A stretch of DNA of 64,000 nucleotides from Candidatus Uhrbacteria bacterium (GCA_963822405.1 CAWGHH010000004.1:70226-134225), one strand, 5' to 3'; shown: positions 5,841 through 63,869, numbered from the stretch's first letter. Notes: generated by a model not told the origin, from the letters alone. Made by a program: numbers and translations.

Positions 5841-5890
5841 AACCACCCTGAACCCCCTTTGGTCCCCCTGGGAGGGGGAAGCGAACCAAC
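5841..5890. repeat. Family B C5/G5 hairpin element, intergenic (downstream of ndk)
   Basis: aaccaccctgaaCCCCCtttggtCCCCCtgggaGGGGGaagcgaacc. Confidence 0.75.
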
Positions 5891-14602: not shown

Positions 14603-14665
14603 GAAAAGAAAAACCGTCCAAGCCACGAGGCTCGGACGGTCTGTTGCTGACGATGTACCTTGATG

Positions 14666-15406
14666 CTACTCGGCGGAGAGGGCAAGGCGCAGATGCGCGT
14701 TCACGAGACCGCGCCGACGAACTTCCGCGAGAACGTCCCGGGTAACCCAGACGAAATCGGCCTGAGCAGCTTCTTTCAGCTCGCCCACGTACCGGTCGGC
14801 CACTTCACGACTCGACATCTTGAGCACGGCGACCGCGTCCACCTTCTCGTAGAACCGCGCGCCGTCCTGGGGAGCGTCCTCCCACCTGGCATCCTTGAGC
14901 TCAGCGTCAAAGATGATGCCCGCGAGCGGAACCGACTGCACGCCCGACTCACCAGCGCGGAACTTGTTGTGCTGATCCAAGTTCCCCTGAGAGAACTGCA
15001 CGCTCGGGGCCATGAGCACCCGGGAGTTCGTGCCGTCTGCGAGCTTCACACCGATGTTGCCGATGTCCGCTTTTGCGCGGACGAGCACGAGTTGCGGCGG
15101 AAGCGGTGTCGCGGTGAGACGGATCTCATCATCACCGGTGACCACGATAGCCGCCTTCGCGTTCTGCTCGCCGGCGATCATCGGCTGCTTCCAGAACGGA
15201 ACTTCACGGCCGGCGACTTTCTTCGCCCACGCCCCGATCACCTGGAAGAACGAGCCATCCGGACGGAACAACTGCTTCCAGGAGATCTGCCACGCCGGTC
15301 CACAATCGGACAGGTTGCACGGCTCGACCTCCATAGCGAGCGCATTTGCCCGCTCGTTCAACCACGCCGCGAACGCCTCCCAATCGGTAAAAACGAGAAT
15401 AGCCAA
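14666..15406 (-). CDS. Hypothetical protein (246 aa) in a GC-rich island
   Basis: Local GC content is markedly above neighbours. The minus ORF has ordinary composition, whereas the overlapping plus ORF is Arg-rich and antisense-like. Confidence 0.5.
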   Translation of the reverse strand: MAILVFTDWEAFAAWLNERANALAMEVEPCNLSDCGPAWQISWKQLFRPDGSFFQVIGAWAKKVAGREVPFWKQPMIAGEQNAKAAIVVTGDDEIRLTATPLPPQLVLVRAKADIGNIGVKLADGTNSRVLMAPSVQFSQGNLDQHNKFRAGESGVQSVPLAGIIFDAELKDARWEDAPQDGARFYEKVDAVAVLKMSSREVADRYVGELKEAAQADFVWVTRDVLAEVRRRGLVNAHLRLALSAE

Positions 15407-15479
15407 GATCCACCTCGCGTGAAAAGGTTTCGCTAGGAAACCAAACGCTGGCGGAGGTTAGCTAAAAAAGAGAATGGTG

Positions 15480-25560: not shown

Positions 25561-28500
25561 CTCTCACAACCTCAACCGACAACGTCGGAGTAGGTGGTGC
25601 GTCGCTCGGCAAGCTATCAGTGGATGGTGATACTGATGAAATTCAATTTTTGGTACAAGGAAACGCGACTCAAAATGCGAACCTAGCTGTTTTTGAAAAT
25701 AGTTCAGGCACAGATCTAGTTACCATCGACAGCCTGGGAGCAATCGCTCAAACATACGCCGGCACTGCGTCAACCGCCACCACTATCTCCATGACCAACC
25801 TTACTTACGGCAGCGGACTACTAGTCATCGGAAGTGGAGCGGCGATGCAAAGTGGAGGGAATCTATTAAACCTCTCCATGGGTGCAGCCACCCAAGGACA
25901 GGCAATATCTATTGCCACTACCGGTATCTACACAGATACCTCTGGAGTCATAAACATGTTTGCAGGCTCTCTCACAAGTGGCATAGCAGAAAATATCGAA
26001 ATCAGCGGACTCACAACAGGCACAGGAATTAACGTTACTGGCGGCTACTCAATGGCGACTGGAAGCGAACTGTTAAATCTCAACATGGGCGCGGCAACTG
26101 CCGGAAACGGAGCTATCGTTACTACAACTGGCATCTATACAGGAACTGGACTTGCGACGCTCACCGCCAACTCCGCCACGACCGGCACGGGCGAAGCCAT
26201 CTCCATGACAGGTGTTACAACCGGTACCGGCCTTTCTATCACCGGCGGTTCGAGCATGACGACCAACGGCGAGTTGCTTGATCTCACAATGGGAACTGCC
26301 GCAGCTGGCAATGCGATCAATATTACCTCAACTGGAGTCTATACCGGCACTGGCATCATAAAAGCAAATGCTAACATCCTTACCTCGGGAACGCTCCTTG
26401 CCCTTTCTTCACCTAGTTCCGCTCAGTCCACAGCAATATTTCTTGACCTAGCTCAAACGGGGGTAACAACTGGTTTCAGTGGAAATCTAATCAATCTATC
26501 CTCTACCGCAACGACCGGTGCAGCAAAATTCATAAACTTAACAGCCGACTCTTCCACCGTCGGAATTGGAGAAAACATTTCCATGACCGGCCTCACCACA
26601 GGCACCGGTCTTTCTATTACCGGCGGATCAAGCATGACGGCTAATGGAGAACTCATCTACCTAAACACGAGCACAGCTGCTACCGGAAGCGCGATCAACA
26701 TAGACAACGCCGGAACTTACACCGGCACCGGTCTCATAGATCTCTCTGCAACCGGAATGACCACCGGTACCGGACTTGCCATCACCGCGGGTGGATTACT
26801 AGGCACCGGCGGAAGACTCACGGAACTTGACATGGGGACATCGACAGCTGGTAACGCGATCAATATAGACGCTATATCAAATTGGTATGAAGGCACCGGT
26901 CTGATAGCAATGACTGCCCCCTATTTAGATCAGGGCACGGCACTCTCCATAAACTCCGGCACAGTAGGTGACAATATGGCCGATGCTGGAGAACTAATTG
27001 ACCTCCAATTAGGTCCAAGCAGTATTGGACACGGAATAAAAATAACTGATAGTGGCGCATATACAGGAACTGGTCTTATCCTGATAACGGCCAACGGACT
27101 CACTACAGGTAAAGTCATCAACATTCCGCACACCACATCCGTCATTGCGTCCGGTGGTTCATTAATTAATCTTTCATCTACATCCATTGACACCGCTACA
27201 ACATCCGGCTCCCTTCTTAACCTATCCTCCACTGCATCTACAGCCGGCACACAATTCTTACAAACATATTCCGGACTGACCACTGGCATCGGACAAAGCA
27301 TAGTCAGCAACGCACTCACCTCCGGCAAACTTCTTTCATTAGCTTCCTCTTCAACAGGTCAAACAAGCGGAACTTTTCTTGATATCGCTCAAACTGGCGT
27401 TACAACAGGCTATACAGGAAACCTCCTGAACATCAGTTCCTCTAGCACGACGGGTGCTGCAAAATTCTTAAATATCCTCGCCGATGCGTCAACTGTGGGC
27501 ACCGGGATTGAACTCTCAATGGATGCGCTCACCACCGGAAAAGGAATCAACATAACCTCAACGAGCGCAGGACAAACATCAGCCAGTCTTCTGAATATCG
27601 CTCAAACCGGCGTAACTACTGGCTTCACGGGCAGCTTAGTCAACATCAGCTCGTCATCTACCACTGGCGCTGGATCAAAGTTTTTAAACATCGTTGCCGA
27701 TGCGTCAACAGTAGGTACAGGCATAAACCTCTCAATGGCGGCAATGACTTCTGGAGTTGGAATCTCCATCACCGGGAGCGGAGCGAGTATGTCAACTGGA
27801 AAACTAATCGATCTTCAACTGGGGGCCAATACTACAGGCAATGGCCTAGCCATAGTATCATCAGGTGCGTATTCCGGAGCAGGAATTATTTCGATCACCG
27901 CTGATAGCGCTACAAATGGGACAGGAGTTTATATATCGATGACCGGAAGAACGGGAGGTCAGGCACTCGCCATAATAGGAGGTACGGGTATGGCGAATGG
28001 TACATACTTAGCTAATCTTGACCTGGGCGCCGCAACAGCAGGGGCAGGGTTTATTGCACAAACTTCAGGAGCATACACAGGCACCGGACTTGGAATCATT
28101 TCAGCGCCGAACGCAACATCAGGAGAAATGCTCTTAATTTCCAGCAGCGGTCTCACCTCATCTGGACATGCTATTAGCATAGTTTCTGGATCGACCAGCG
28201 GAGGCATCATCATTGCAGGAAACGGCAATACTGCAACATCTATTGACGCGGATGGGCAGGTCAGAATTGGATTCTCTACAACGACTAGCTCTGTAGCGGT
28301 CTGTTCGACGCTCGGTGCCGGAGCCGCTCCGGTCTCCGGAACATCATATTTCCTTCGAGATTGTGCCGGAACAATCACCGCTGACTATGCTGAAATGTAC
28401 CCAGTAGAAACTGGAATTGAGTATGGAGATATTTTAACCACCGGCACAACTCCAATCAGCGTATACGCAGCACTCCCAGACGGTAGTGGCCTAGACCCGA

Positions 28501-30284
28501 CTAACGCTATCGGTAGCGTAACCTCCTTAGTAAAATCTGTCAGCGAATACCAAGCAAACATAATCGGCATCGCCTCAGATAACCACGGCGATTTCTCGAG
28601 TGCCGGTTACAACGTAATGGATGCCGATAACCCCATGCCCGTCGCCCTTAACGGTCGCGTCCCAGTCAAGATTGCGAACACCTCCGCCCCAATCGTCGCC
28701 GGCGACTACATCACCACCTCAAGTGAAGCTGGCAAAGGCATGAAAGCTACACTGTCCGGCGTTGTTATCGGTAAAGCACTCGAATCATGGATCCCTGACA
28801 ACGGCCAAGCGACCGTCATGGTTTTCGTCGAGCAGGGATACAGTACCGGCTCCGGAACCGACCTCGCAGAAATGTATTACTCGACAGATGAAACTATCGC
28901 GAAGGGCGACCTCGTTCGCATTGACGACAACATTCACGCCGGCGTAGCAAAAACAAACGGTACTTACGACGGAACTATCCTCGGCATTGTCGCTAGCCGA
29001 CCAGGTCTCGTGCTTCACGATCCAAAAGAAGCACATGAAGGCACAGCAGTACTCGTTGCTCTTGTTGGTCGAGTGCCTGTCAAAGTAACTACCGCTAACG
29101 GAGATGTTCATGCTGGCGACCTACTTACTTCCTCAGCTATTCCAGGAGTAGCCATGAAAGCTACCGCCGGCGGTCGAGTGATTGGTCAGGCGCTCTCTTC
29201 ATACACAGACGCCGGTGAAGGAATAGTGCAGGTATTTATTAATAATTCTTACGCCCCGACAGAAGTCTTTGCGCAGATAAATGCAGGTGCTTCAGTCACT
29301 AATCCAACTGTCGATCCAGTTGCCCCGGCATTCGTCACCACTGCCGATTTCGCTACAGCTCTCAATGAGATGAACAGTAGTTTGAACGCGCACGTTGCAA
29401 ACGAGCTTATCATCACGGACGCTCTCTCGGCTGGTGTATCTGGTCTTAATGATCGAGTCACCACCCTCGAAACCACCGTTTCCGCCAATGTTTCTGCACT
29501 TGCGGACGTTTCGACCCGTTTAATTGCGCTAGAACAAAATAGCCTAAGCCTTACTAGCCTGAATTTGCCTGGCGCCTTAGAAGTTACTGGTACCACAAAA
29601 CTCACCGGCGGATTACAGGTTGATTCGATAAGTTCTATCGGTTCTTCGATCAACTTCGCATCCGACATCAATCTCATCGGTCGCCCACTCTTTAATAAGG
29701 ACACAGGTGGCTTTGCGATTATCCACACCGGCGACACGTTCGTTCGCGTCACGTTTGAAAAGCCTTATGTCACTACGCCGGTTGTCGATGCATCCGTGAC
29801 TTTCAATGCTATCACTGATGAAATCGTGGCCGCGCAAGCTGAAGCTGATTATTTCGCGAGCGGAATGCACCTCATCGTAACCAGAAAAGACGTAACGGGA
29901 TTCACCATCATGTTGAATGCCCCGGCAACTACAGACCTGTCGTTCAACTGGATCGCGCTTGCCATTACGGATGCGAGAACGGATGAGTCGGTAGGGTCGA
30001 CGCTTGGGTCGACCCCGACACCGGTTGTTGCTGGCGCTACTGATCCTGCGCCTATTGATCCGACACCAATCCCAGATCCAACTCCGGTAGTTGATCCAGC
30101 ACCAATCATTGATCCCGTTCCCGTCGATCCAACACCTGTCGTAGACCCAACCCCAATCATCGATCCAGCCCCAATCGTTGACCCCGCTCCGATCGATCCA
30201 GTATTGGTCGACCCAATACCTGCCCCTATCGATCCGGCTCCGATTATTGATCCCGTGCCAGTCGATCCAGCCCCTGTAATCTAA
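24516..30284 (+). CDS. Giant surface protein, main segment (1922 aa)
   Basis: Continues the module WTDGGTDVTLTTSTDNVG exactly where the previous frame breaks. C-terminal DPxPI(I/V)DP repeats. Family A repeat in-frame at 29993-30020. Confidence 0.7.
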   Translation: MLAVRADGGTDITLTTSTDNVGIGGASLGKLSVDGDTDEIQLLIQGNATQTSNLAVFETSAGTDLFAISGAGELTQTYTGAGNASSITSTTTTNGSKGLIVSNTGVVTGRGYAGFFSKTGASTTNVGLYASASGATDNYAAIFDSGYVGIGTTSPIAKLNIQGWWAQTLMDGDSLAIRKPNYAGGGWARTLMDFQEYDGSTLTSMGAFGSNNTFVYGYIGAAYNDTTFQWYPDKSVAFNGSVGIGDTSPAAAFVVGNGDLFQVTSAGIIAAATGITSTGNVNFTGAILTGASPLSFDGATAGGIKTIFAITDPTVADKTITFPNATGTVALTSDLAIAGGWTDGGTDVTLTTSTDNVGVGGASLGKLSVDGDTDEIQFLVQGNATQNANLAVFENSSGTDLVTIDSLGAIAQTYAGTASTATTISMTNLTYGSGLLVIGSGAAMQSGGNLLNLSMGAATQGQAISIATTGIYTDTSGVINMFAGSLTSGIAENIEISGLTTGTGINVTGGYSMATGSELLNLNMGAATAGNGAIVTTTGIYTGTGLATLTANSATTGTGEAISMTGVTTGTGLSITGGSSMTTNGELLDLTMGTAAAGNAINITSTGVYTGTGIIKANANILTSGTLLALSSPSSAQSTAIFLDLAQTGVTTGFSGNLINLSSTATTGAAKFINLTADSSTVGIGENISMTGLTTGTGLSITGGSSMTANGELIYLNTSTAATGSAINIDNAGTYTGTGLIDLSATGMTTGTGLAITAGGLLGTGGRLTELDMGTSTAGNAINIDAISNWYEGTGLIAMTAPYLDQGTALSINSGTVGDNMADAGELIDLQLGPSSIGHGIKITDSGAYTGTGLILITANGLTTGKVINIPHTTSVIASGGSLINLSSTSIDTATTSGSLLNLSSTASTAGTQFLQTYSGLTTGIGQSIVSNALTSGKLLSLASSSTGQTSGTFLDIAQTGVTTGYTGNLLNISSSSTTGAAKFLNILADASTVGTGIELSMDALTTGKGINITSTSAGQTSASLLNIAQTGVTTGFTGSLVNISSSSTTGAGSKFLNIVADASTVGTGINLSMAAMTSGVGISITGSGASMSTGKLIDLQLGANTTGNGLAIVSSGAYSGAGIISITADSATNGTGVYISMTGRTGGQALAIIGGTGMANGTYLANLDLGAATAGAGFIAQTSGAYTGTGLGIISAPNATSGEMLLISSSGLTSSGHAISIVSGSTSGGIIIAGNGNTATSIDADGQVRIGFSTTTSSVAVCSTLGAGAAPVSGTSYFLRDCAGTITADYAEMYPVETGIEYGDILTTGTTPISVYAALPDGSGLDPTNAIGSVTSLVKSVSEYQANIIGIASDNHGDFSSAGYNVMDADNPMPVALNGRVPVKIANTSAPIVAGDYITTSSEAGKGMKATLSGVVIGKALESWIPDNGQATVMVFVEQGYSTGSGTDLAEMYYSTDETIAKGDLVRIDDNIHAGVAKTNGTYDGTILGIVASRPGLVLHDPKEAHEGTAVLVALVGRVPVKVTTANGDVHAGDLLTSSAIPGVAMKATAGGRVIGQALSSYTDAGEGIVQVFINNSYAPTEVFAQINAGASVTNPTVDPVAPAFVTTADFATALNEMNSSLNAHVANELIITDALSAGVSGLNDRVTTLETTVSANVSALADVSTRLIALEQNSLSLTSLNLPGALEVTGTTKLTGGLQVDSISSIGSSINFASDINLIGRPLFNKDTGGFAIIHTGDTFVRVTFEKPYVTTPVVDASVTFNAITDEIVAAQAEADYFASGMHLIVTRKDVTGFTIMLNAPATTDLSFNWIALAITDARTDESVGSTLGSTPTPVVAGATDPAPIDPTPIPDPTPVVDPAPIIDPVPVDPTPVVDPTPIIDPAPIVDPAPIDPVLVDPIPAPIDPAPIIDPVPVDPAPVI
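29993..30020. repeat. Family A element inside giant surface gene, in-frame (encodes GSTLGSTPTP)
   Basis: GGGTCGACgcttGGGTCGACCCC. Confidence 0.8.
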
Positions 30285-30307
30285 ACCGTCGCTCAGTTTT
30301 AGAACGC

Positions 30308-30814
30308 GTGGTAGCATTATGCAGTATGAAAACAATTTCAAAGGCTAAGCCTGACTCTATGAACAAACTCACGGTCATCGGTCTCCTTATATTTGCCCTG
30401 GCATCCGTAGGCGGAAACGTTTTTCTTGGAGTGAAGTATTTCTCCGCACCAAAAGTAATCAGCGTGCTTGATGAAAATCAAAAAATTATTGCTGACGTGG
30501 GTAAACTCATGGAACTACCAACTGACGAGTTGCCGACTGTAGCTAAAGTCGACGATCCGCAGCAACTCATAGATCAAGGCGTGTTCACTAAAGTTCAAAA
30601 AGATGACACGGTGCTTATTTATCCAAAAGCTAAGCGAGCTATTCTTTACCGCCCAAGCACCAATAAAATTATCGAGGTGGCCACCGTGAATATCACTGAT
30701 ACACCACCAGCGGCTACGAACGGGTCGACGCTTGGGTCGACCCCAACGCCAACGACGCCACCGGCTCCCGCGCCAATCCCGGCACCTGCCCCAACACCCA
30801 CCCCTACGCCGTAG
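30308..30814 (+). CDS. Membrane-anchored protein, paralog of the N-terminal domain of 47241..47933
   Basis: TM helix, then LPTDE…ILYRPSTNKIIEVATVNIT aligning to the LPTDE…ILYRPSTDQIIQVASINVS domain of 47241..47933. Pro/Thr-rich tail. Family A repeat in-frame. Confidence 0.6.
   Translation: MVALCSMKTISKAKPDSMNKLTVIGLLIFALASVGGNVFLGVKYFSAPKVISVLDENQKIIADVGKLMELPTDELPTVAKVDDPQQLIDQGVFTKVQKDDTVLIYPKAKRAILYRPSTNKIIEVATVNITDTPPAATNGSTLGSTPTPTTPPAPAPIPAPAPTPTPTP
30719..30748. repeat. Family A element inside 30308..30814, in-frame (encodes GSTLGSTPTP)
   Basis: Identical 23-nt core to the copy at 29993. Confidence 0.8.
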
Positions 30815-30823
30815 GCCCTTCTG

Positions 30824-31831
30824 GTGTACGGGCTTGGCGCCGCCAAGCCCTTACGTATGATTACATCCAAACCAATCATTCTCTACGCGGCATTGATAGG
30901 CCTTCTTTTTGGCATGCCTTTTCAAGCGCTCGCCGGCACTCTCTCTTGCTCGGTAACAACCTCATGCCCAACGGGCACTGTGCTTTACCGCCTTTATGAT
31001 CCGAACGGCAATCACGCCGAGATGCCCAGCCAATCACTCTATACATATATGGTGTGCTGCACCGGCGTCGCTGGCCTGGGCAATAGCTGTGCTACTGGCG
31101 TGAACGCAGTTGTCGTCAAACTTTCGAGCACAACAAATGCACACATAGAACAAAACTCCCAGTCCAACTATTCCGGTAATGACGCCTGCTTATCAGTCGA
31201 TGCTGGTGGCTCGGTCTCGGTTGGTTATCAAGCCACTAATTGCAGCGGCTACGATACAACCATTGGCTCAATGACAGCGGTAACCAATAGCCACGTTGGG
31301 GATGGCGCCGCCTATGCCGTCAAAATCTGCGCGACCGCCCTACCGCCACAGACATTAACCTTCAACGTCTCAGATAACACGATCGGATTCGGAACACTTT
31401 CCGCAATTGTTCCCAGGTATGCAACGGGAGACGCCCAAGGGTCAGGCGCGGAAGTAGAAGCGCATACCTTAGCGATCAGTACATCAGCAGCAAACGGCTA
31501 CACGCTCACAATTAGAGGCACAACTCTTGCGGACGGTGGGAATGTCATAACCCCGATAGGCGGAACTAACACAGCCCCAATCCCCGGGTCAGAACAGTTC
31601 GGCTTAAGGCTAGTGGCAACTGGTGGATCAGGTACGGTAACTTCCCTGTATGGAGCTTCAGGATTTGCTTTCAATGCCACTGACTCTACTACCATCCAAG
31701 TAGCCACAGAGAATCCTGGAGATGAAGTGACCACCACATACTCAGCACGCTATCTTGCAAACATTACAAACACCACACAACCTGGAAGTTACGCAGCCAC
31801 ACTCACCTATATAGTAACGGGATCATTTTAA
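30824..31831 (+). CDS. Secreted Cys-rich beta-protein, paralog of 31945..33075
   Basis: Signal peptide. Shared C-terminal domain TLTFNVSDNTIGFGTL … YxxTLxYIxTGxF. Confidence 0.6.
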   Translation: MYGLGAAKPLRMITSKPIILYAALIGLLFGMPFQALAGTLSCSVTTSCPTGTVLYRLYDPNGNHAEMPSQSLYTYMVCCTGVAGLGNSCATGVNAVVVKLSSTTNAHIEQNSQSNYSGNDACLSVDAGGSVSVGYQATNCSGYDTTIGSMTAVTNSHVGDGAAYAVKICATALPPQTLTFNVSDNTIGFGTLSAIVPRYATGDAQGSGAEVEAHTLAISTSAANGYTLTIRGTTLADGGNVITPIGGTNTAPIPGSEQFGLRLVATGGSGTVTSLYGASGFAFNATDSTTIQVATENPGDEVTTTYSARYLANITNTTQPGSYAATLTYIVTGSF

Positions 31832-31880
31832 TTTTTTCCGTACGTATCGTAAGAATGTTATAAACAACCCGCCTTATATT

Positions 31881-31912
31881 TTACTAACATAAATTATTTG
31901 AGTGCTATAATG
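31881..31912 (+). promoter_or_regulatory. Candidate sigma70 promoter with extended -10 (TGcTATAAT)
   Basis: TG-n-TATAAT at 31904-31912 in an AT-rich intergenic region about 30 nt upstream of the 31945 ATG. Confidence 0.35.
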
Positions 31913-31944
31913 CTAAGTATTAATTACCAGGATACAATATTGAT

Positions 31945-33075
31945 ATGCGCACACCGTCATTTAAAAAAAGTTTTAGGTCTGGTGTCAGCCTTATAGTGGC
32001 GACTACCGCCATGATCGCCGGACCGCTTCTCCAGATTGGCGCACTTACTCAATACGCACACGCCGCTACCCTCACCACAATGTCAGATACCATGACTGAT
32101 CAGGCTCCATCAGCAGAATCAACCCATACGATCAAATGGACAACGGCCGGCCAAAACGTAACCGGAGACACTGTGATTATTGATTTCGTTGCGGCAGACT
32201 TCGTTCCCTCGGGAACATGGGCTACTACGGACTTCGCCCTTACTGACATTGGCGGGGGTCGCACAGCTACCGCTCCTGTATCTGTTGGCACTTACCTAAT
32301 CCCAGGAACATGTTCCTCCGGCGCAACTAATTATATTGTTGATGTTGATGCCACGAGCGGTTCATTCCGCATCACATTTTGTGCCGGCTGGACCGCAAGC
32401 ACGGCCGCTAACCTAACCACCTTCGTGATCGATGCCGATGCTCTGGCGACCGGCGGTATCATGACAAACAGTGCATCGAACGTTGAATCATCAGTAGTGA
32501 ACATTGCCTACGCTACTTCCAACTCAGACAGTGGTATGTTGGCCATCGTCGTTGAATCACTGGCAAACGTAAACATCACTGCCACGGCTGCCGTTGGACC
32601 AACACTCACTTTTAACGTCAGCGACAACACAATTGGCTTTGGAACGCTAAGTTCAGTGGCCGCTAGATACGCTTCGCCTGATACGCTTGGAAGTGCCCTC
32701 TCCACAACCGTCGCGCACACATTCTACGTTGATACTAACGCGACCGGCGGATATATTGTCACATTCAAAGGGGCTACACTAACATCCGGTGGTAACACCA
32801 TCACTGCGATCGGCAGTTCGAACACCGCATCCACCCCAGGAACAGAACAGTTCGGACTGCGGGCTACGGTAGCCAGCGGTAGCGGAACAGTAACGGCTCC
32901 GTATGCAGCGGCTGGATTTGCCTTCACGGCAGGTACCACACAACCAGTAGCGTCATACACCGGAGTTGATGCAGGCACTACTTTTAACGCCATTTATCTG
33001 GCCAACATCACCGGTGCCACGGAAGCCGGTGCTTACTCAACAACCTTGAAATACATTGCTACCGGAACTTTTTAA
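31945..33075 (+). CDS. Secreted beta-protein, paralog of 30824..31831
   Basis: Signal peptide. Same C-terminal domain as the 30824..31831 gene. Confidence 0.6.
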   Translation: MRTPSFKKSFRSGVSLIVATTAMIAGPLLQIGALTQYAHAATLTTMSDTMTDQAPSAESTHTIKWTTAGQNVTGDTVIIDFVAADFVPSGTWATTDFALTDIGGGRTATAPVSVGTYLIPGTCSSGATNYIVDVDATSGSFRITFCAGWTASTAANLTTFVIDADALATGGIMTNSASNVESSVVNIAYATSNSDSGMLAIVVESLANVNITATAAVGPTLTFNVSDNTIGFGTLSSVAARYASPDTLGSALSTTVAHTFYVDTNATGGYIVTFKGATLTSGGNTITAIGSSNTASTPGTEQFGLRATVASGSGTVTAPYAAAGFAFTAGTTQPVASYTGVDAGTTFNAIYLANITGATEAGAYSTTLKYIATGTF

Positions 33076-33088
33076 GCAATTAACTGAA

Positions 33089-33118
33089 AATACCGCCGAA
33101 AAGGCGGTATTTTTTATA
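33089..33118 (+). terminator. Rho-independent terminator
   Basis: ATACCGCCgaaaaGGCGGTAT followed by TTTTTTAT. Confidence 0.7.
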
Positions 33119-33184
33119 CACAGAATTTCACAAATTCATCATAGACACGAGCCGTCATACCTGAGAAAATGCAACTTAGAACAT

Positions 33185-34177
33185 ATGAAATACCTGTCTC
33201 TCAGCTTTCTCGGTGCGTTACTCGGCCTCTGTCTGTCAGTACAAAGCGCATTCGCAATTACCGTATCTCCAGTGAAAATAGAGGTGTCTGGGGATCCTGG
33301 ACATGCAGTTACCGGAGAACTAGAGCTGTTCAACGGCGAAAAAAATGCCGTAACTCTCTACTCATCTTTTGAAAAATTTGAAGCCCAAGGAGAAACCGGC
33401 AACCCTGTCTTCACCCCCGGAACGGAAGATCTTAGTACGTGGATTCAAGTCACTCCCAGTATCACTCTCCAGCCGATGGACCGAGTAAAGCTCCCCTTCC
33501 GTATCACCATCCCGGCTGACGCCACCCCAGGCGGACACTTTGCAGCAATATTCTGGAATAATGCGCCACCAACTGACTTACAGAATAGCGAGGTGAGAGT
33601 CGGTTCTAAAATTGGCATATTAGTCTTACTGAAAGTTTCCGGGGAAGTAACTGAATCTGGTAATTTCATTGGATTTGGCACTGAAAATGATCAAACATTT
33701 TTCACCTCGCCTCCAGTAAATTTCTGGTATCGATTTCAAAATGCCGGTTCAGATCGGGTGAAACCAACTGGAACTATTCTTATCAAGAATACTTTCGGCC
33801 TAAAGGCTACTGAATTCAACGCTAACCCAACAGATGGCAACGTGCTACCGCAAAGCATTCGTCGATTAACAGCTTCGTGGCTAGAAAAAGATCACTGGGA
33901 TAATGTAGTAAAAATACCAGACGATAAAAGCTTTCTATCGCTCGCGTCCTACGAATTACAGCATTTTCATTTCGGTCGCTTTACCGCCCACCTCAATCTT
34001 GAGTATGGCACCGAAGGAAAGATAGCTTACGCAAAAGTCTCTTTCCTGATGATTCCATGGCATGCGCTCATCATAGTCATTCCCACGCTCTTCATCATCT
34101 TTATTCTTGGTATAATCTTCTTGAAGCGGTATAACCGTTGGATTATTCGCCAAGCAAATGCGAAAACGCAGGGTTAA
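33185..34177 (+). CDS. DUF916 (CscA)-like cell-surface protein with C-terminal TM anchor
   Basis: Signal peptide MKYLSLSFLGALLGLCLSVQSAFA. ITVSPVKIEVS…LPFRITIPADATPGGHFAAIFW pattern resembling DUF916. C-terminal hydrophobic helix plus basic tail. Confidence 0.5.
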   Translation: MKYLSLSFLGALLGLCLSVQSAFAITVSPVKIEVSGDPGHAVTGELELFNGEKNAVTLYSSFEKFEAQGETGNPVFTPGTEDLSTWIQVTPSITLQPMDRVKLPFRITIPADATPGGHFAAIFWNNAPPTDLQNSEVRVGSKIGILVLLKVSGEVTESGNFIGFGTENDQTFFTSPPVNFWYRFQNAGSDRVKPTGTILIKNTFGLKATEFNANPTDGNVLPQSIRRLTASWLEKDHWDNVVKIPDDKSFLSLASYELQHFHFGRFTAHLNLEYGTEGKIAYAKVSFLMIPWHALIIVIPTLFIIFILGIIFLKRYNRWIIRQANAKTQG

Positions 34178-35228
34178 TCACAAGCATAAAGGACTTCTCG
34201 TCATCGCTCTCGCCGCCTTATTATTAGCGGCGGGAGTTTGGCATCTTGTCGAGTTAACCCGCGCTGATCCACCACCAGTCGAAATAGATGTCACAATTTC
34301 AACTATGGTTCTTGGCTGCGGCGACGGCATAGTCGAGCTAGGCGAAGATTGTGACGGAACAGAGATGAACGGACACACCTGCGCAACAGAGGGCTTCTTA
34401 TACGGCTCTATCAGCTGTCAGGCTAGTTGCGTAGTCCAAACCTCAGCCTGCACTATGGCCACACCAAGTGGAGGAGGTTCTACACCAGTCGTCCCGGTCT
34501 CCTCGACCAAAGAAATATTTACGGGTTACGCATCTCCGGAAAGTACCGTAAACATCTTTAAAGATGGTATTGTCGTCGCTACCGTTACAACAGATGCAAC
34601 CGGAGTATTTTTCGCCCAAATCAATAATGTGACAAATGGTAATTACATATTCGGTTTTCTAGCGACTGATGCTTCCGGCAACGCTTCTGCCTTTTCTACC
34701 CTAAATATTACGGCCAGTGGAGGAATTGCTACGAATGTAGATATGCTACTTTCGCCAATAATGGTTCCGATGATATCGCCTGGGACAACCGGAAATTCAG
34801 TCATGATGTCAGGCAGTACCGCTCCCAATGCTAGTGTAAAAGTATCGCTGTATTCACCGCTAGGAATATCGCTATCGAATCAGACCGTGTCAGCCGATGA
34901 CCAGGGGCTCTACATGGCAATGTTCGATGCATCTTTGTTAACTACGGATGGAGTCTATACAGATATTGATCAAGCATCACTGGGCACACTAACTAGCGAC
35001 TTCAGTCTCCCTGGCCTATTTACCGTTGGTGCCCCTGTCCCTCTCTACATGCCCGGTGACTATGACGAAAACTTGAGAGTAAATTTGGTCGACTTTTCGA
35101 TTGCCATGTACTGGTACAAATGGCCACTAACCGACGCTTTCAAAATTCTTGAACTTCGACACGGCAATGGAGACGGTCTCTTGAACTTGATCGACATCAG
35201 CATTATGGCTTACTGGTGGACTGGATAA
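34158..35228 (+). CDS. Secreted protein with C-terminal dockerin-like repeat pair
   Basis: N-terminal TM/signal. C-terminus has two EF-hand-like dockerin repeats (DENLRVNLVDFSIAMYWY / GNGDGLLNLIDISIMAYWW). Confidence 0.5.
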   Translation: MRKRRVNHKHKGLLVIALAALLLAAGVWHLVELTRADPPPVEIDVTISTMVLGCGDGIVELGEDCDGTEMNGHTCATEGFLYGSISCQASCVVQTSACTMATPSGGGSTPVVPVSSTKEIFTGYASPESTVNIFKDGIVVATVTTDATGVFFAQINNVTNGNYIFGFLATDASGNASAFSTLNITASGGIATNVDMLLSPIMVPMISPGTTGNSVMMSGSTAPNASVKVSLYSPLGISLSNQTVSADDQGLYMAMFDASLLTTDGVYTDIDQASLGTLTSDFSLPGLFTVGAPVPLYMPGDYDENLRVNLVDFSIAMYWYKWPLTDAFKILELRHGNGDGLLNLIDISIMAYWWTG

Positions 35229-35232
35229 TTCT

Positions 35233-36141
35233 ATGCACTCCCCTGCAAAAAAAATTATCGTCATCATCGTTTCACTCACCGCTCTTCTGGCGCCGCATTT
35301 ACTTTTCGCTGCCCAGGTTACCGTATTGCCGGGAAGTAAAGCGGTCATTCAAACGGCCGAATTTCAAACTGACGTCACAATCGATACTAATGGCGAATCA
35401 ATTAATGTCTTTTCGGGAAAAATTGTTTTTCCGAGTGATATTGTCGAACTAAAAGAAATTCGAAGTGGCAACTCAATAGTAAATTATTGGGTCGAGGAAC
35501 CAAAAAATGTGAACGGCGAAATCGCCTTCGCCGGCATGACGCCTGGAGGCTACAACGGCAATCACGGGGTAATCTTTTCACTCATCTTCACCGCTACTGC
35601 CCAAGGTCAAGGGAGTATAGTCGTTAAAGACCCACTGTTCCTAAAGAACGACGGCAAAGGAACCTCGGCTAACATCAATATCAGCAATTCGATCCTCACC
35701 GTTCTTGCGCCAGACCAAAGACGGAACATCGTCGTCCCGCCAATTACTGATACAACGCCACCTGAACTCTTCGCCCCGGAAATTTCACGCTCCCCGTCAA
35801 TCTTAAACAATGCTTGGCTACTATTCTTCAGCGCGCAAGACAAAGGATCTGGCATTGGTCACTATGAAATTCAAGAATATCAAAACGGCCTATTCAGCTT
35901 CTTCGCCCCATGGCAGATAGCGTCAAGCCCGTACTTGCTCAAAGATCAATCGGCCAGCAGCCAACTCAATGTTCGTGCAATAGATAAATCGGGAAACATT
36001 CGCACCGTTCATGTCTCGCCCCTTCATGCGCCGGTTTGGTACCTCAATATAATAAATTGGTTCGTTGTTATTGGTATACTGGCGCTGATCGTTACCCTGA
36101 AAACGGTACTATGGCGAAAGCGTGGAAAAATTTCCTCTTAG
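35233..36141 (+). CDS. Cohesin-like domain protein with C-terminal membrane anchor
   Basis: Signal peptide, QVTVLPGSKAVIQTAEFQTDVTIDTNG… cohesin-like beta-sandwich pattern, C-terminal TM helix plus KR tail. Confidence 0.45.
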   Translation: MHSPAKKIIVIIVSLTALLAPHLLFAAQVTVLPGSKAVIQTAEFQTDVTIDTNGESINVFSGKIVFPSDIVELKEIRSGNSIVNYWVEEPKNVNGEIAFAGMTPGGYNGNHGVIFSLIFTATAQGQGSIVVKDPLFLKNDGKGTSANINISNSILTVLAPDQRRNIVVPPITDTTPPELFAPEISRSPSILNNAWLLFFSAQDKGSGIGHYEIQEYQNGLFSFFAPWQIASSPYLLKDQSASSQLNVRAIDKSGNIRTVHVSPLHAPVWYLNIINWFVVIGILALIVTLKTVLWRKRGKISS

Positions 36142-37238
36142 GTTTTACCGCGCTCTTATTTTTCTTGCTCGGCACGTTACCGAATACTAGCCAAGCAGCT
36201 GGCTTCTTGTTTTCGCCGTCATCCGGCACAGGAACTGTCGGCGTTCCGCTAACTGTTACCGCAATCCTGAACACAAACGGCGTCATTGCGAACGCGGCTG
36301 ATGCGTCTATTTCATTTCCGCCTAGCTTACTGAATGTTTCTTCTGTTTCAAAAACTGGCTCCGTCATGGCGCTCTGGATCCTCGATCCTACGTTCTCCAA
36401 CAGCACCGGAGAAATCACTTTCACCGGTGGCACGCCTCGTCCTGGTTTCAGCGGCTCATCGCTCACTCTCGCTACCATCACCTTTATCCCAAAGGCCGCA
36501 GGAACAGCCACCATCTCTTTCACGGGAGTATCCGTCTTATCAGGCGACGGCCTAGCAACTGAGCTCTTAAACAGCCTCGGATCCGCAACATTCGTGATCA
36601 ACGCTGCGCCACCTCCCCCGCCACCACCTCCGCCGGTAGTCGTAGTCCCGCCACCAGCACCACCGCCAGTAATCATTTACGTTCCAGTTCCAGCAGTAAC
36701 TCCGCCAGCTCCGCCACCAGCTCCCCCAGCCCCACCTCCAGAACCCGTAGTCTGTCCACCAACGGGCACGGGCTATGTGCCACCGTCGACAATACCGACC
36801 GAACCACCGATTGCTCCAATAGAAATACCCGCCCCACCTACAGTGGCCGAGTTAGTAAATCTTGTTCCAACCTCAATCCCAGAACTAATTACTACGCCCG
36901 CGCAAATTTCGGCTTCATTTGATAGCGCAGCCACGGCCATGAGCAACATAGTCGGTAAAACAATAACTAGGTTCCTACAACCGGCACCGGTTGCACCAAT
37001 CGTGGACAAACAAGGCAACCTCCAATGTCCAGCCGCCTCAGCTATCACTATAACTCCCCCATCAGATGGTGGTTGGTTAGCATATCTTATTGCCGGACTC
37101 GCCGGTATCATCATCGGCTACCTCCTCAGAGAGTTGATCGAAAAGAAAAAGAAACGCAAAGAGCTTAAAGCCAAACCTACTCAGCCAAAAATCGTTCCGC
37201 CTCCAAAGCCGCCATACATCCCGTTCCCGCCGCGGTAA
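36111..37238 (+). CDS. Cohesin-like domain surface protein with proline-rich stalk and C-terminal TM anchor
   Basis: Start MAKAWKNF. Signal peptide, TVGVPLTVTAILNTNGVIANAADASISF domain, poly-Pro linker, TM helix + KKKKRKELK tail. Confidence 0.5.
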   Translation: MAKAWKNFLLGFTALLFFLLGTLPNTSQAAGFLFSPSSGTGTVGVPLTVTAILNTNGVIANAADASISFPPSLLNVSSVSKTGSVMALWILDPTFSNSTGEITFTGGTPRPGFSGSSLTLATITFIPKAAGTATISFTGVSVLSGDGLATELLNSLGSATFVINAAPPPPPPPPPVVVVPPPAPPPVIIYVPVPAVTPPAPPPAPPAPPPEPVVCPPTGTGYVPPSTIPTEPPIAPIEIPAPPTVAELVNLVPTSIPELITTPAQISASFDSAATAMSNIVGKTITRFLQPAPVAPIVDKQGNLQCPAASAITITPPSDGGWLAYLIAGLAGIIIGYLLRELIEKKKKRKELKAKPTQPKIVPPPKPPYIPFPPR

Positions 37239-38097
37239 TCGCTTGACGGTAGTGCGGATCCATAACATCCCCACAAGCAAACACGCCGGGGATGTTTGTT
37301 TTTGTAGATTTGCCTTCCGTCACAATATAGCCCTTTTGGTCGAGGGTGATCGAATTCGTGAATAATTCAGTATTCGGCTTGTGACCAATCGCGACAAATA
37401 ATCCTTGAGTCGCAAACTCGCTCATCTCACCCGTCTTCGTGTTCTTCAGTTTTAATGCACGAATACTTGCATCGCCGAGTACTTCTTCGACCGTCGAATC
37501 CATCAAAAATGAAATCTTCGGATTATTCTTCGCGCGGTCAAGCATGATTTTCGAGGCTCTAAAAGATTCGCTCCGGTGAATAATCGTAATCTTGCTCGCA
37601 AACCGGGACAAAAAGTTAGCCTCTTCCATAGCGCTGTCTCCCCCGCCAACTACGACAATTTCTTTACCGCGGAAAAAGAATCCGTCACATGTTGCACACG
37701 CAGAAACACCCTTGCCCTGGAATTCTTTTTCGCCAACACAACCAATCCACTTCGCACTCGCGCCCGTCGAAATAATGATCGAGTCCGTGGTTATTTCTTT
37801 GCCGTTTTCGCTCTTGATGGCATATGGCCTGGTCGAAAAGTCCACCGAGGTGACAACATCTTGAAAAACTTCTGTTCCAAATTTCTCCGCCTGCTTCTTC
37901 AGCTTGTCCATGAGCTCGACGCCCAAAACTCCGTTTGGTTCCCCCGGCCAGTTCTCAACTTCACTCGTCAGCATTAATTGTCCCCCGGGTTCGCGCCCCG
38001 CAAACAACACCGGCTTCAACATGGCTCGCGCCGCATAAATCGCCGCCGTGTAACCAGCAGGTCCCGAACCAATGATAACAAGAGAGTGGTGATTCAT
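37177..38097 (-). CDS. trxB: Thioredoxin reductase
   Basis: GSGPAGYTAAIYAAR FAD-binding, CATCDG redox-active disulfide, GGGDSAMEEA NADPH-binding. Confidence 0.9.
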   Translation of the reverse strand: MNHHSLVIIGSGPAGYTAAIYAARAMLKPVLFAGREPGGQLMLTSEVENWPGEPNGVLGVELMDKLKKQAEKFGTEVFQDVVTSVDFSTRPYAIKSENGKEITTDSIIISTGASAKWIGCVGEKEFQGKGVSACATCDGFFFRGKEIVVVGGGDSAMEEANFLSRFASKITIIHRSESFRASKIMLDRAKNNPKISFLMDSTVEEVLGDASIRALKLKNTKTGEMSEFATQGLFVAIGHKPNTELFTNSITLDQKGYIVTEGKSTKTNIPGVFACGDVMDPHYRQAITAAGTGCMAALEAERFLAE

Positions 38098-38210
38098 AGT
38101 TGCCAAAGTCTAGCACGCCCTCCTCGAACAACAAACTACAAAATACACACACCTCAAAACTAAACCGCCCCAGGTCATTAAGACCCGAGGCGGAGGACGA
38201 GAGAGAACGA

Positions 38211-39086
38211 TCAGCCGGTCATGAGCGACCAGGCGTAGAGGCTGGACGGGTGATCCTGGTAGTCCCAATTGATCATGGCACCGTAGATGCCTTCCCGCGG
38301 ACCGGCCAGGATAAAGCCGGTAACGGTGCGGAAGTCGTTGGAGCCAGGATAGAACCCGCGGAACCACGTACGGCTGTCGGAGTCGGTCTGCAGCGCGACC
38401 AAGCGGAGCTTGATCTCAGCTCCACCCTGGTACGGAAACACTTCCCGCACATCTTCGAGCTTCTCGCGCCGGATGACGGACAAACGCTCTTTGTGAGGTA
38501 CCCGGCTGGTCTGAAGCGCACAGTTCGGAAGTGTAATCGCCGGTTGCCCGGTGATGTAGTGGAGCGAACACGTGTTGTTCGCGAGAGATCCTCGCTGGTC
38601 GAACGGCGTGCTGATCACCTCCTTCCCCGGACCGTTGCGCTGGGCAGGAACGAGAGCATCCCAGGCATAGTCGATCGGCGGTTCTCCCCGATGATCCCAC
38701 ACTGTCACTACGCCATACGGGTACGCCTGCTCCTTCTTCAGGTAGAGAAACCCGCTCACCAGGTTGCGCTGTTCGCTGTAGGACGTGTAGCCCTCAAAGT
38801 GCACCACACCCGCTACTCGGTTCACGCGCACCTTCGTGATGTGCGCGTTGAGCACGGTCCACTGGAAGTCAAACCGTCTCGGCTCCACGGAAGAACGCGT
38901 CATGGGATTCGTGTAGCGCTCCATCTGCGGCGCTGTTGCATGGCGCATGTGCGCAAGGTTGAGGTCAAAGCTCAGCCGCTCCGACACTCCGTCAACATTA
39001 CCGATGAGGGCGAGGAACTCCGCGAAATTCTCCACCGTACGAATAACAGACACACACCCAGCAGCCCGATCAAGAACCTGTGACAT
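38211..39086 (-). CDS. Hypothetical protein (291 aa) in a GC-rich island inserted between trxB and trxA
   Basis: GGAGGT 4 nt upstream of ATG 39084-39086. Elevated GC. Own terminator-like hairpin at 38150-38190. Overlapping plus-strand ORF is Arg-rich and antisense-like. Confidence 0.5.
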   Translation of the reverse strand: MSQVLDRAAGCVSVIRTVENFAEFLALIGNVDGVSERLSFDLNLAHMRHATAPQMERYTNPMTRSSVEPRRFDFQWTVLNAHITKVRVNRVAGVVHFEGYTSYSEQRNLVSGFLYLKKEQAYPYGVVTVWDHRGEPPIDYAWDALVPAQRNGPGKEVISTPFDQRGSLANNTCSLHYITGQPAITLPNCALQTSRVPHKERLSVIRREKLEDVREVFPYQGGAEIKLRLVALQTDSDSRTWFRGFYPGSNDFRTVTGFILAGPREGIYGAMINWDYQDHPSSLYAWSLMTG

Positions 39087-39147
39087 GAAACCTCCAACAG
39101 TGAACGTGAACCGTGGCATTAGATATGAAAAAGTAGTTTTCGTCAAC

Positions 39148-39172
39148 CAAAAACGCCCCTTTCGGGGCGCCA
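39148..39172 (-). terminator. Rho-independent terminator of trxA
   Basis: GGCGCCCCgaaaGGGGCGtt followed by TTTTT on the minus strand. Confidence 0.65.
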
Positions 39173-39184
39173 TTGGCAATCAAA

Positions 39185-39496
39185 CTAACCAATAATCTGC
39201 TTAACTCTTTCCTTGAATGTTTCTTTGCTCATCGCTCCAGAGAATCTGCCAACTTCGCTTCCGCCCTTCATAACTACGAAGGTAGGAATCGACAAGACAT
39301 TGAAACGCATGGCCAGCTCCTGAGCATCATCTACGTTTACTTTAGCGAATGATACTTCAGTCATCTCGTTGCTCAGCTCCTCGATCATTGGGCCCATCAA
39401 GCGACACGGTCCGCACCAAGTAGCCCAGAAGTCGACAACTACAGGAGTTGTAGATTGAGTGATCTGTGAATCGAAGTTTGCGGTTGTAAGATCCAT
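39185..39496 (-). CDS. trxA: Thioredoxin
   Basis: WATWCGPCR active site. Confidence 0.95.
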   Translation of the reverse strand: MDLTTANFDSQITQSTTPVVVDFWATWCGPCRLMGPMIEELSNEMTEVSFAKVNVDDAQELAMRFNVLSIPTFVVMKGGSEVGRFSGAMSKETFKERVKQIIG

Positions 39497-39500
39497 AATT

Positions 39501-41522
39501 TTACACGGCTAATGTTCTAGCTTGTAATTCCTCTTTATACGCCTCGAGTGTATCACCAACTTCAATCTTGGTCTTGCCCTGGAAGGACAGTCCGCAGTCT
39601 TGACCGGCGAGCACGTCTTTAACTGTTGATTTACCGCTCTGCAAAGCCTCAATTCTTCCTTCGCCCATGATGTTACCGGCACGAAGGATACGGACAACCG
39701 CACCAGGAACAAATTTACCCTTCTTAACTTTAGCACCGACAATCTGTCCCTTATCCGTCTTCTTGAAGAGGGCGAGCACTTCACCTGTACCAAGTTCCGT
39801 GTAGATATTCTCAGACGGAATAAGTTTCTTCAAACGTTCAACTATGTTCTCAAAGATTCTGTAAATAACTGTATGTAGCTCTACATCAACATTCTTTGTT
39901 CTAGCTGCATCAGCGGCCGTAGTGCTAGCTTTTACGTTGAATCCGTAAATAACTGCCTGGGAACCTTCTGCTCGGTCAACGTCTACATCAGTAATGTTCC
40001 CGAGTCCTTTGTGAACGATCTTCACACCAACGTGCGGGTTCTCAATCTTTTCAATCATACCAACAAGCGCTTCAAGCGAGCCAAGTACGTCAGCCTTCAC
40101 CATGAGGTTCAAATATACCTTCTTGCTTCCGGCGTCTTCCGTGGTGTCAGCGGCCTTAGCCATCTTAGTACCAATATCCTGCGCACCACTCTTGTGCTTC
40201 ACGTCCTGGCGAACATCTTCTAATTCATCTGGATTTTCTGGCACTTCAAGGATGTCGCCAACTGACGGCGCAACTTTGAAACCAAGAATTTTTACTGGTG
40301 TAGAAGGCAACGCTTCTTTGATCGTCTTGCCGTCGTAAGTCGTCAAAGCACGAACCTTACCGTATAAGAAACCGCCAACGCTCAAGATGTCGCCGACTCG
40401 GAGAGTTCCAGTCTGAACGATAATAGTCGCAATTGGTCCTTGGCCTTTGTCGATTTTGGACTCGATAATAGTTCCAAGTGCTTTACGATCTGGATTAGCA
40501 ACAACGTTATCCTTCTCCATGTCAGCAACGAGCAATAGAACGTCAAGCAGCTGATCAATATGCAAATTCTTCTTAGCAGAAATTGGGACGCAAATAGTTT
40601 TGCCACCCCAATCTTCAGGAACAAGTCCAGCCTCGGCCAGCTGGCTCTTTACTAGCTCCATGTTAGCATTGTCTTTGTCGATCTTGTTGATCGCGACGAT
40701 GAATGGCAACTTAGCGGCCTTGATAATATCGATCGCTTCTTTAGTTTGTGGCTGTACACCGTCATCCGCTGCTACAACTAGAATAGCGATGTCCGCAACT
40801 TTTGCACCACGGGAACGCATGACCGTGAACGCTTCGTGACCTGGGGTATCAATAAATGTCAGCAAACGTTCATTGCGAACAACTTGGTACGCACCAATGT
40901 GCTGTGTGATTCCACCAGACTCGCCAGCAACAACGTTTGCCTTTCGAATAACGTCCAAGAGCGAAGTCTTACCGTGGTCAACGTGACCCATGACAACGAT
41001 AACTGGTGGACGAGCTGCAAAGTGCACACCCTCTCCACGCTCATCTTCACGCGCCTTTGCCAGGCGATCTTCACCGGCACCAAGGAGAGATTCCGTTACA
41101 ACATCTTGAGGCTCAGCAATAAATCCCAAATCTTCCGCAATAATAGAAGCAGACTCGTAGTCGATCGGTTCATTCAAGGACGCCAAAATTCCAGAACGCA
41201 TCAGTTCCTGCATCACTTTCTGCACCGGTAAGTTCAAGAGAGTAGAAAATTCGCGCACCGTAATTTTACCTGGGATCTTTACATGTTCAGCCGTACCAGA
41301 AAGAACAGACGCCTTCTTTTCTAGGCGAGACTTCTGATCTTCCATTTTCTTCTGGAGATACTGGCGCTTTTTCAAATCCTGCCAGGCGTTCTGGATCTTT
41401 CCAACGTCCCGATCTGGAATCTTCAAAGCCTTACCTCCAATGTCAAAACCAAGCTCCGGTAGCTTGGATCTCAATTCTTCTGTGGACACCCGTAGGCGCC
41501 GTGCTAATTCAGAAATGTTCAT
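39501..41522 (-). CDS. infB: Translation initiation factor IF-2
   Basis: G-domain [30 protein letters not shown]-2 C-terminal beta-barrels. Confidence 0.95.
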
Positions 41523-63794: not shown

Positions 63795-63869
63795 AAGTGT
63801 ATTTCCCGTACAGATTACCACGACCCCCACAAAATACCAACACAAAATACACACACCAAATGCCAAACA

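Follow-up and report, generated by a model that had tools for sequence, protein, structure and literature searches.

The question raised by this locus is how a protein-coding gene that is rich in G+C (GC) and belongs to no recognized family came to lie between trxA and trxB, which adjoin one another in related genomes. The locus lies in a 64,000-nt stretch of a Candidatus Uhrbacteria genome (CAWGHH010000004.1:70226-134225), referred to here in its entirety as the window. The host is a bacterium of the Patescibacteria, or candidate phyla radiation (CPR), with conserved infB-trxA-trxB synteny. The gene, designated orfX, is a 291-aa open reading frame (ORF) on the minus strand (39086..38211) that begins with ATG and ends with TGA, and it was found where the initial annotation had described it. 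For comparison, relatives and collection entries were labeled L001 to L092 (loci) and P0001 to P0030 (proteins). From these sequence comparisons we consider it fairly likely that orfX is a real minus-strand gene, that it forms a self-contained module in what was an ancestral 62-bp trxA-trxB spacer, and that it was acquired from a GC-richer source. Overall, the locus looks like ordinary horizontal gene traffic, with an acquired orphan gene in an insertion hotspot. Beyond the first account, the insertion appears as one allele of a shared, recombining hotspot, and the orphan protein as an internal duplication within a family resident in this slot.

The closest TrxB proteins are those of Patescibacteria metagenome-assembled genomes (MAGs), and nearer relatives were reached through a TrxB protein search and contig look-ups. 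In distant relatives with TrxB proteins 60 to 65% identical (L001 to L004, L025, and L038), the order infB-trxA-trxB is kept and the trxA-trxB gap is 6 to 108 bp. The spacer measures 73 bp in the contig of P0025 (TrxB 74% identical) and 62 bp in L088 and L089 (86%) and L090 (88%), where it is made up of the trxA terminator, then GTGCTAGACT, and then the start of trxB. The pair is thus uninterrupted in genomes with TrxB proteins 60 to 88% identical, as had been anticipated. The accompanying statement that trxA and trxB are normally adjacent holds for this lineage, as part of infB-trxA-trxB, but not as a rule for bacteria generally.

In other relatives the same spacer is filled. A 162-aa ORF is present in L082 (TrxB 92% identical) and a 147-aa ORF in L083 and L084 (86%), while L085 (86%) carries two unrelated orphan ORFs of 213 and 223 aa (L085 2563-3902), which are GC rich like orfX (GC 0.61 and GC at third codon positions [GC3] 0.75 to 0.78, versus 0.54 GC for the locus). 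In L091 and L092 an NYN-domain gene is placed directly after GTGCTAGACT; the L091 cargo has a PADLOC match to NYN (E 1e-4) and is unrelated to orfX. In L086 and L087, the cargo gene runs on the opposite strand and encodes 218 aa, with a hydrophobic segment at the N terminus. The slot thus accommodates at least four cargo types that are unrelated to one another: the orfX family, the L085 pair, the secreted protein of L086, and the NYN gene of L091.

Aligned with L082 and L083, the window shows DNA similarity through infB and trxA to window positions 39142 and 39116, respectively, with similarity returning at 38192 and 38100. Comparison with the empty alleles of L088, L089, and L090 places the insert at ~39146 to ~38117, or ~1,030 bp. 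In infB, trxA, and trxB, the filled locus L083 is nearest the empty locus L088 (0.82 to 0.86 nucleotide identity) and the window is nearest L082 (0.83); filled and empty states do not track the gene phylogeny. L088 and L090 carry an empty allele similar to the pre-insertion sequence of L091, a more distant outgroup; this allele is therefore ancestral and not the product of a deletion. Given the empty spacers and differing cargo, the trxA-trxB spacer is a variable insertion hotspot in this clade. The suggestion of a horizontally acquired cargo gene thus gains support from the empty sites and variable cargo of relatives, as well as from the deviant composition of orfX. Conservation of the gene at this position across the lineage, which would have spoken for the contrary, is seen only weakly and patchily, as probable, very remote homologues in L082 and L083.

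Further differences among relatives were seen close to infB. In L082 a diversity-generating retroelement (DGR), comprising a bAvd-like gene, an RVT_1 reverse transcriptase, and a 219-aa ORF, lies just upstream of infB (L082 4035-6843), and the window is without it. A 23S_rRNA_IVP gene is found near infB in L088, and a faint Y1_Tnp match in L089; the neighborhood of infB-trxA-trxB thus varies within this clade.

The base composition of orfX sets it apart from the window, which has a GC content of ~49%. The bin 38001-39000 (GC 0.583) ranks highest of the 64 1-kb bins. For orfX itself GC is 0.596 (0.61, 0.44, and 0.74 at the first, second, and third codon positions [GC1, GC2, and GC3]), compared with 0.488 +/- 0.028 for GC and 0.486 +/- 0.056 for GC3 among the 42 other ORFs of the window (z ~3.9 and ~4.5, respectively). 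The elevated GC noted at the outset was therefore borne out by the composition check proposed with it, both measures lying about 4 standard deviations above the window genes.

As predicted from the sequence, the module is ~1.03 kb long and would comprise a sigma-70-like promoter (TTGACG-17 nt-TCTAAT), a GGAGGT ribosome-binding site (RBS), the 291-codon ORF, and an intrinsic terminator, set into the 62 bp that ancestrally separated the trxA terminator from the trxB promoter. The RBS attributed to orfX in the initial annotation is present, as are the terminator-like hairpin placed near 38150-38190 and the trxA terminator placed near 39148-39172 (Table 1). Both minus-strand hairpins are much more stable than shuffled sequence. 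The trxA hairpin is kept in every relative, whether the slot is filled or empty, while the four cassette-type slots keep the TTGACR motif with its 17-nt spacer and empty sites lack it. The orfX unit accordingly has a clear terminator and a putative promoter kept among filled alleles.

A common frame surrounds the differing ORFs of the window, L082, L083, and L085. It consists of a trxA terminator of the form GCGCCCCG..GGGGCGTTTTTGG; TTGACR, followed at a 17-nt spacing by a -10-like hexamer; an RBS, which is GGAGGT in three of the four filled loci; and, 3' of the ORF, a hairpin CGCCTCGGGTCTT..GACCTGGGGCG with a T-run. This hairpin forms the conserved right end of the frame and is kept in L082, L083, and L085 with base changes that preserve pairing. 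Divergence of the frame is about equal to that of the flanking genes (50 to 79% identity). Two earlier descriptions consequently stand only in part: an insertion is supported but is not private to this genome, since the promoter-ORF-terminator frame occurs also in L082, L083/L084, and L085, and the hairpin read as the gene's own terminator exists but is common to the shared frame and not unique to orfX.

Within the orfX protein, residues 97 to 146 align with residues 240 to 289 (BLASTP E 1e-5; Smith-Waterman z 8.6 versus shuffled sequences, p ~1e-5), and the protein therefore consists of two tandem copies of a ~145-aa domain. Each half aligns colinearly, up to the C terminus, with the single-domain slot proteins L082_162 and L083_147 (z 3.7 to 4.8, p 0.001 to 0.005), while none of 15 control comparisons involving the cargo of L085 and L086 was significant. 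When a hidden Markov model (HMM) of the two halves was compared with 5,139 six-frame ORFs from the window and 92 loci, the slot ORFs of L083 and L082 were the top nonself matches. Because of these alignments, the HMM ranking, and the shared promoter, RBS, and terminator, remote homology of orfX to the L082 and L083 slot proteins is rated as likely, and orfX would then belong to a tiny, fast-evolving, slot-resident family of a ~145-aa domain that is duplicated in orfX.

Outside the slot, searches of many kinds returned no relative. Neither Pfam, NCBIfam, PHROGs, PADLOC, nor PDB sequences gave a match to orfX, and a word-indexed search of 5.8 billion clustered proteins retrieved only orfX itself. 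An exhaustive HMMER search of 1.84 billion representatives added a single protein, P0002, which was rejected as a homologue: this tandem-repeat protein of 1,112 aa owes its score to the addition of ten weak matches, each a copy of the same 25%-identical, 55-aa match (pairwise E ~0.002 to 0.03). In all, no real homologue was found among ~15 billion proteins, and the initial remark that the protein has no recognizable family held throughout. Viral contigs, metagenome contigs, plasmids, and phages yielded no relatives, and a profile of the four domains (alignment A1) recovered only its own members from 5.8 billion proteins. An Rfam scan gave no RNA family in the orfX region and only two tRNAs, far away, in the whole window; thus, nothing points to a structured RNA at orfX.

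In the AlphaFold model of domain 1, a four-stranded beta-meander (residues 81 to 130; predicted local distance difference test [pLDDT] 60 to 71) is accompanied by flanking helices, and with low confidence the domain may be an alpha+beta fold built on such a meander. No CxxC motif was found in the protein, no signal peptide or membrane segment was seen by eye, and the Pfam scan gave no Thioredoxin-family match. Bracketed by terminators, orfX therefore does not readily count as a component of the thioredoxin system; its absence from most relatives, the missing CxxC, and the predicted transcription unit of its own all argue that it stands outside that system.

Concerning the origin of the present ORF (GC3 0.74), a GC-richer source is proposed, perhaps another Patescibacterium. 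Replacement by a distant family member from such a source is favored over divergence in place, because the slot ORFs of L082 and L083 have GC3 values of only 0.53 and 0.56 and because the window and L082 slot ORFs share no DNA similarity despite flanks that are 83% identical. Homologous recombination through the conserved flanks, trxA and trxB, would have carried filled alleles from one related lineage to another. DNA uptake would be the likely route of entry, because ComEC-like competence genes are found in the window. These genes (6413-8760) consist of an ORF with a Lactamase_B domain followed by a Competence/DUF4131 ORF.

Several results weigh against this account or limit its reach. Relative synonymous codon usage (RSCU) in orfX correlates with that of a hexose-dehydratase-like gene and both L085 slot genes (r ~0.8) and only slightly with that of window genes (r 0.25), which might have indicated a codon dialect of a common donor for orfX and these three GC-rich genes. 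This idea was downgraded, since within codon boxes orfX chooses between codons ending in C and in G as the host does and the correlation is therefore mostly a GC3 effect. Codon usage thus pinpoints no donor, and the signal is compatible with a GC-richer relative. The putative promoter fails a strict consensus scan, and the RBS lies only 3 nt from the ATG. In the family assignment, the HMM scores are weak for so small a database (E 0.04 for L083 and 0.14 for L082; next match, E 2.6), L082_162 and L083_147 alone are not significantly similar (p 0.1), and no orfX homologue exists outside three genomes, so that purifying selection is not measurable. The structural models are poor as well: pLDDT is 35 for the whole protein modeled from its single sequence, domain 1 reaches a pLDDT of 53 and a predicted template modeling (TM) score of 0.50 with a four-row alignment, and Foldseek found nothing in the PDB at E < 0.01 (TM ~0.3). 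Any role proposed for the protein also has to contend with PADLOC and PHROG scans of orfX and its slot relatives, which gave no match for the orfX family.

The coding status of orfX bears on two competing explanations. That the gene is instead the 327-aa ORF on the plus strand might be argued from its slightly greater length, but its product has an unusual composition, with 13.5% Arg, 6.4% His, and no Trp, and a Kullback-Leibler (KL) divergence from average protein composition of 0.13, versus 0.04 for the orfX product. GC1 (0.70) exceeds GC3 (0.61) in this ORF, whereas GC1 is below GC3 in orfX, as fits a gene of ~60% GC. The codons of this ORF are exact reverse complements of orfX codons, up to an end that corresponds to orfX codon 2. 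The plus strand remains open because TTA and CTA are absent from the codons of orfX and TCA occurs once, at codon 2, exactly where the plus-strand ORF stops; under window codon usage, 9.4 codons of these three kinds would be expected. The TTG at which it starts overlaps the start of trxB on the opposite strand, neither an RBS nor a terminator was found for it on the plus strand, its product had no match in family scans, and the public record calls the minus-strand ORF. A GC-rich gene elsewhere in the window (14666..15406, minus strand) with a clear Pfam match serves as an internal control, as it too is shadowed by an Arg-rich ORF on the opposite strand. A plus-strand gene is accordingly the least credible of the alternatives, with a chance close to nil, and the first description of this ORF as Arg-rich and antisense-like proved accurate. 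Somewhat less remote, but still improbable, is the explanation that orfX is nonfunctional GC-rich foreign DNA or a decaying pseudogene, open merely through scarcity of stops. The lack of database homologues and of a confident fold would agree with this, as would long ORFs on both strands, the second of which is fully accounted for as the codon-aligned shadow. The chance of 291 open codons at the base composition of orfX is p ~6e-5, however, and orfX shows the strong three-base periodicity of a ~60% GC gene, an RBS at a conserved position, a significant internal repeat at the protein level, and a C-terminal motif end shared with the slot homologues. The log likelihood of synonymous codons under window usage did not single out orfX, because host codon usage is nearly flat. 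With its natural amino acid composition, its GC1 and GC3 pattern, and an RBS and two terminators on its own strand, the minus-strand ORF is the plausible gene and is predicted to encode a protein, in agreement with the original strand assignment.

Other explanations concern how orfX came to its place. Were it native to the slot, after one entry in the ancestor of the clade followed by extreme divergence in place and an internal duplication, it would be the ortholog of L082_162 and L083_147; the homologous frame in the window, L082, L083, and L085, with 50 to 79% identity in step with the flanks, and the colinear remote homology of the slot ORFs are consistent with such a history. It is nevertheless unlikely, as ORFs between 83%-identical flanks in the window and L082 have no DNA similarity and differ in length (291 versus 162 aa), the shift to a GC3 of 0.74 from 0.53/0.56 in the homologues and 0.49 in the host is too large for drift in place at this divergence, and empty alleles of the ancestral type occur inside the same subclade. 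Far less probable is a site-specific mobile cassette with a dedicated recombinase, in which the hairpins would act as recombination sites of the integron or IS200/IS605 type. Single-ORF units with a conserved 3' hairpin that are swapped at a fixed site would suit such a cassette, as would the faint Y1_Tnp match near infB in L089 and the DGR near infB in L082. Against it, no recombinase, integrase, or transposase was found among the neighboring genes tested (within ~6 kb), no direct or inverted repeats above chance were found at the insert borders, and divergence of the frame has kept pace with that of the flanks. Both hairpins also have T-runs, like terminators; the one after orfX is single copy in the 64-kb window, and its motif in metagenome and viral contigs was found in five unrelated contexts or not at all, with no related loci. 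An assembly artefact or contamination, in which a foreign GC-rich fragment was joined into the MAG contig, is slightly less probable again, although the composition is atypical and the organism is known solely from metagenome assembly. An independent Logan contig, L081 (ERR12037365), is 100% identical to window positions 27177..38627; it spans trxB and the 3' half of orfX and so crosses the orfX-trxB junction, but its break within orfX at 38627 could be taken to favor an artefact. The insert, moreover, lies exactly between regulatory elements, its frame is common to three related genomes of other samples, and its protein is related to their slot proteins. The end of L081 falls at orfX codon 154, 1 to 2 codons from the junction of the repeated halves, and may mark a strain variant or a branch of the assembly graph.

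Acquisition of a ready-made module, the interpretation preferred here, invites comparison with known systems. Phage morons, as defined in the HK97/HK022 literature, combine a promoter, a gene, and a terminator with deviant composition. Similarly, orfX is a single gene with a putative promoter of its own and a factor-independent terminator, situated between genes that adjoin one another in relatives; it deviates from its neighbors in base composition, and the cargo varies between relatives. In one account, a moron is described as an independent transcription unit of a phage, spread by horizontal transfer and lying between genes that adjoin each other in phages related to it (PMC3594210). By its architecture, orfX comes nearest to this type of unit. 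In contrast to these, orfX lies in a bacterial chromosome between housekeeping genes, and no phage genes were found near it and no match in PHROG or phage collections. Horizontal gene transfer and genomic islands are reported to be frequent in Patescibacteria (PMC12455944). The slot shares with genomic islets and hotspots a presence/absence polymorphism, different cargo between conserved flanks, atypical GC, and orphan genes, but the insert is a single gene of ~1 kb with no tRNA, integrase, or repeats, and several alleles keep a common promoter/terminator frame, unlike usual islets. Integron gene cassettes are likewise single-ORF units with a 3' hairpin exchanged at a fixed position; the orfX slot, however, has no IntI, attI, or array, the unit has its own putative promoter, and the attC core GTTRRRY is absent from the hairpin at 38193..38165 and its flanks, where a T-run typical of a terminator is seen instead. 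IS200/IS605-type elements differ through multicopy ends, terminal repeats, and a transposase, none of which was found here among the features and neighbors tested. Unlike a DGR target gene, orfX has no template repeat in the window, no part of 38100-39200 having a second copy in the 64 kb, and the L082 DGR is missing from the window. As with CPR/Patescibacteria orphan genes, orfX lacks a database homologue or domain and its host lineage is poorly sampled; unlike typical genes of this kind, its insertion history can be traced, its domain is duplicated, and two remote relatives of it occupy the same slot in other genomes.

The function of orfX can be addressed from context only. It is a strain-variable, fast-diverging gene of predicted independent expression, and in other genomes its slot is taken by an NYN nuclease-domain gene or a secreted-protein gene. 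Because fast-evolving hotspot cargo of this kind frequently serves in conflict or niche adaptation, a tentative guess is that orfX encodes a strain-variable accessory protein for biological conflict or niche adaptation. A bolder proposal, and an unlikely one, is that the trxA-trxB spacer is a dedicated swap slot whose frame supplies recombination handles and that the orfX family is a rapidly diversifying class of conflict proteins. If that were true, the family would act in phage defense, immunity, or host interaction of episymbionts and diversify by domain duplication, and a role in phage defense or host interaction would add to its value. As it stands, the locus is a clean, small example of gene gain and swap in streamlined CPR genomes, in which one ready-to-express gene would have been dropped into a 62-bp spacer between essential genes while alternative cargos and empty alleles persist in close relatives. 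As a natural marker, the slot lends itself to tracing recombination among uncultured Patescibacteria, and it yields a tiny orphan family, built on a ~145-aa domain, that evolves far faster than its surroundings.

The coordinates of orfX, its predicted signals, and its flanking genes are collected in Table 1. Genes near orfX include infB, trxA, trxB, fpg, truB, and rny, and many neighboring genes are likewise without a Pfam match.

Table 1. Features in and around the trxA-trxB slot of the window
Feature	Position	Strand	Basis or remarks
infB (initiation factor IF-2)	39501..41522	-	Upstream of trxA; confirmed by Pfam
trxA, thioredoxin, 103 aa	39185..39496	-	Pfam Thioredoxin, E 1e-30; syntenic with relatives; conserved upstream flank of the slot
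Terminator-like hairpin after trxA	39152..39171	-	GGCGCCCCGAAAGGGGCG plus T-run; terminator scan; fold -22.6 kcal/mol, z -4.2
Promoter-like element (putative)	39118..39146	-	TTGACG (39146..39141), 17-nt spacer, TCTAAT (39123..39118); read from sequence
Shine-Dalgarno GGAGGT	39090..39095	-	3 nt 5' of the orfX ATG; same place in L082 and L083
orfX, predicted orphan protein-coding gene	38211..39086	-	291 aa, stop codon within coordinates; P0001 is the same protein in the public record
orfX domain 1 (predicted), residues 1-152	38631..39086	-	Best-conserved repeat core, residues 97-146 (38798..38649)
orfX domain 2 (predicted), residues 153-291	38214..38630	-	Repeat core, residues 240-289 (38369..38220)
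Shadow ORF, 327 aa, Arg rich	38100..39083	+	Judged non-gene; codon-aligned antisense of orfX
Terminator-like hairpin after orfX	38165..38193	-	CCGCCTCGGGTC-TTAAT-GACCTGGGGCGG plus T-run; -24.5 kcal/mol, z -6.0
Spacer with putative trxB promoter	38107..38164	-	Extended -10-like GTGCTAGACT at 38116..38107, part of the ancestral empty site
trxB, thioredoxin reductase	37177..38097 (or 38106)	-	Pfam Pyr_redox_2, E 8e-55; conserved downstream flank

Of the two possible starts of trxB, the ATG at 38097 is conserved in relatives and the TTG at 38106 is not; P0006 is a 306-aa form of TrxB. The start is thus probably ATG 38097, giving 306 aa. The GTGCTAGACT box ends 9 nt before this ATG, no Shine-Dalgarno motif is present there, and trxB may be leaderless. 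Upstream of the trxB -10-like box, a motif GGTGTGTGTATTTTGT (38138-38153) has a second copy at 63842-63857, upstream of a TGGTAATCT box that precedes another minus-strand gene. The motif is ~90% conserved in the L085 slot and may be a shared promoter-upstream element.

A second GC-rich island (14660-15436, GC 0.62) contains the gene at 14666..15406 used above as an internal control. This gene encodes 246 aa with a single NDP-hexose 2,3-dehydratase domain (Pfam E 1e-16) and has its own terminator-like hairpin; its protein cluster in the collection is a singleton, and it is probably another acquired gene. A ~35-nt element with a C5/G5 hairpin, CTGAACCCCCTTTGGTCCCCCTGGGAGGGGGAAG, was identified at window positions 5848-5881 and 6684-6716, with one copy intergenic and one inside a metallo-beta-lactamase-domain ORF, and also at L082 4081-4117, on the edge of the DGR insertion.

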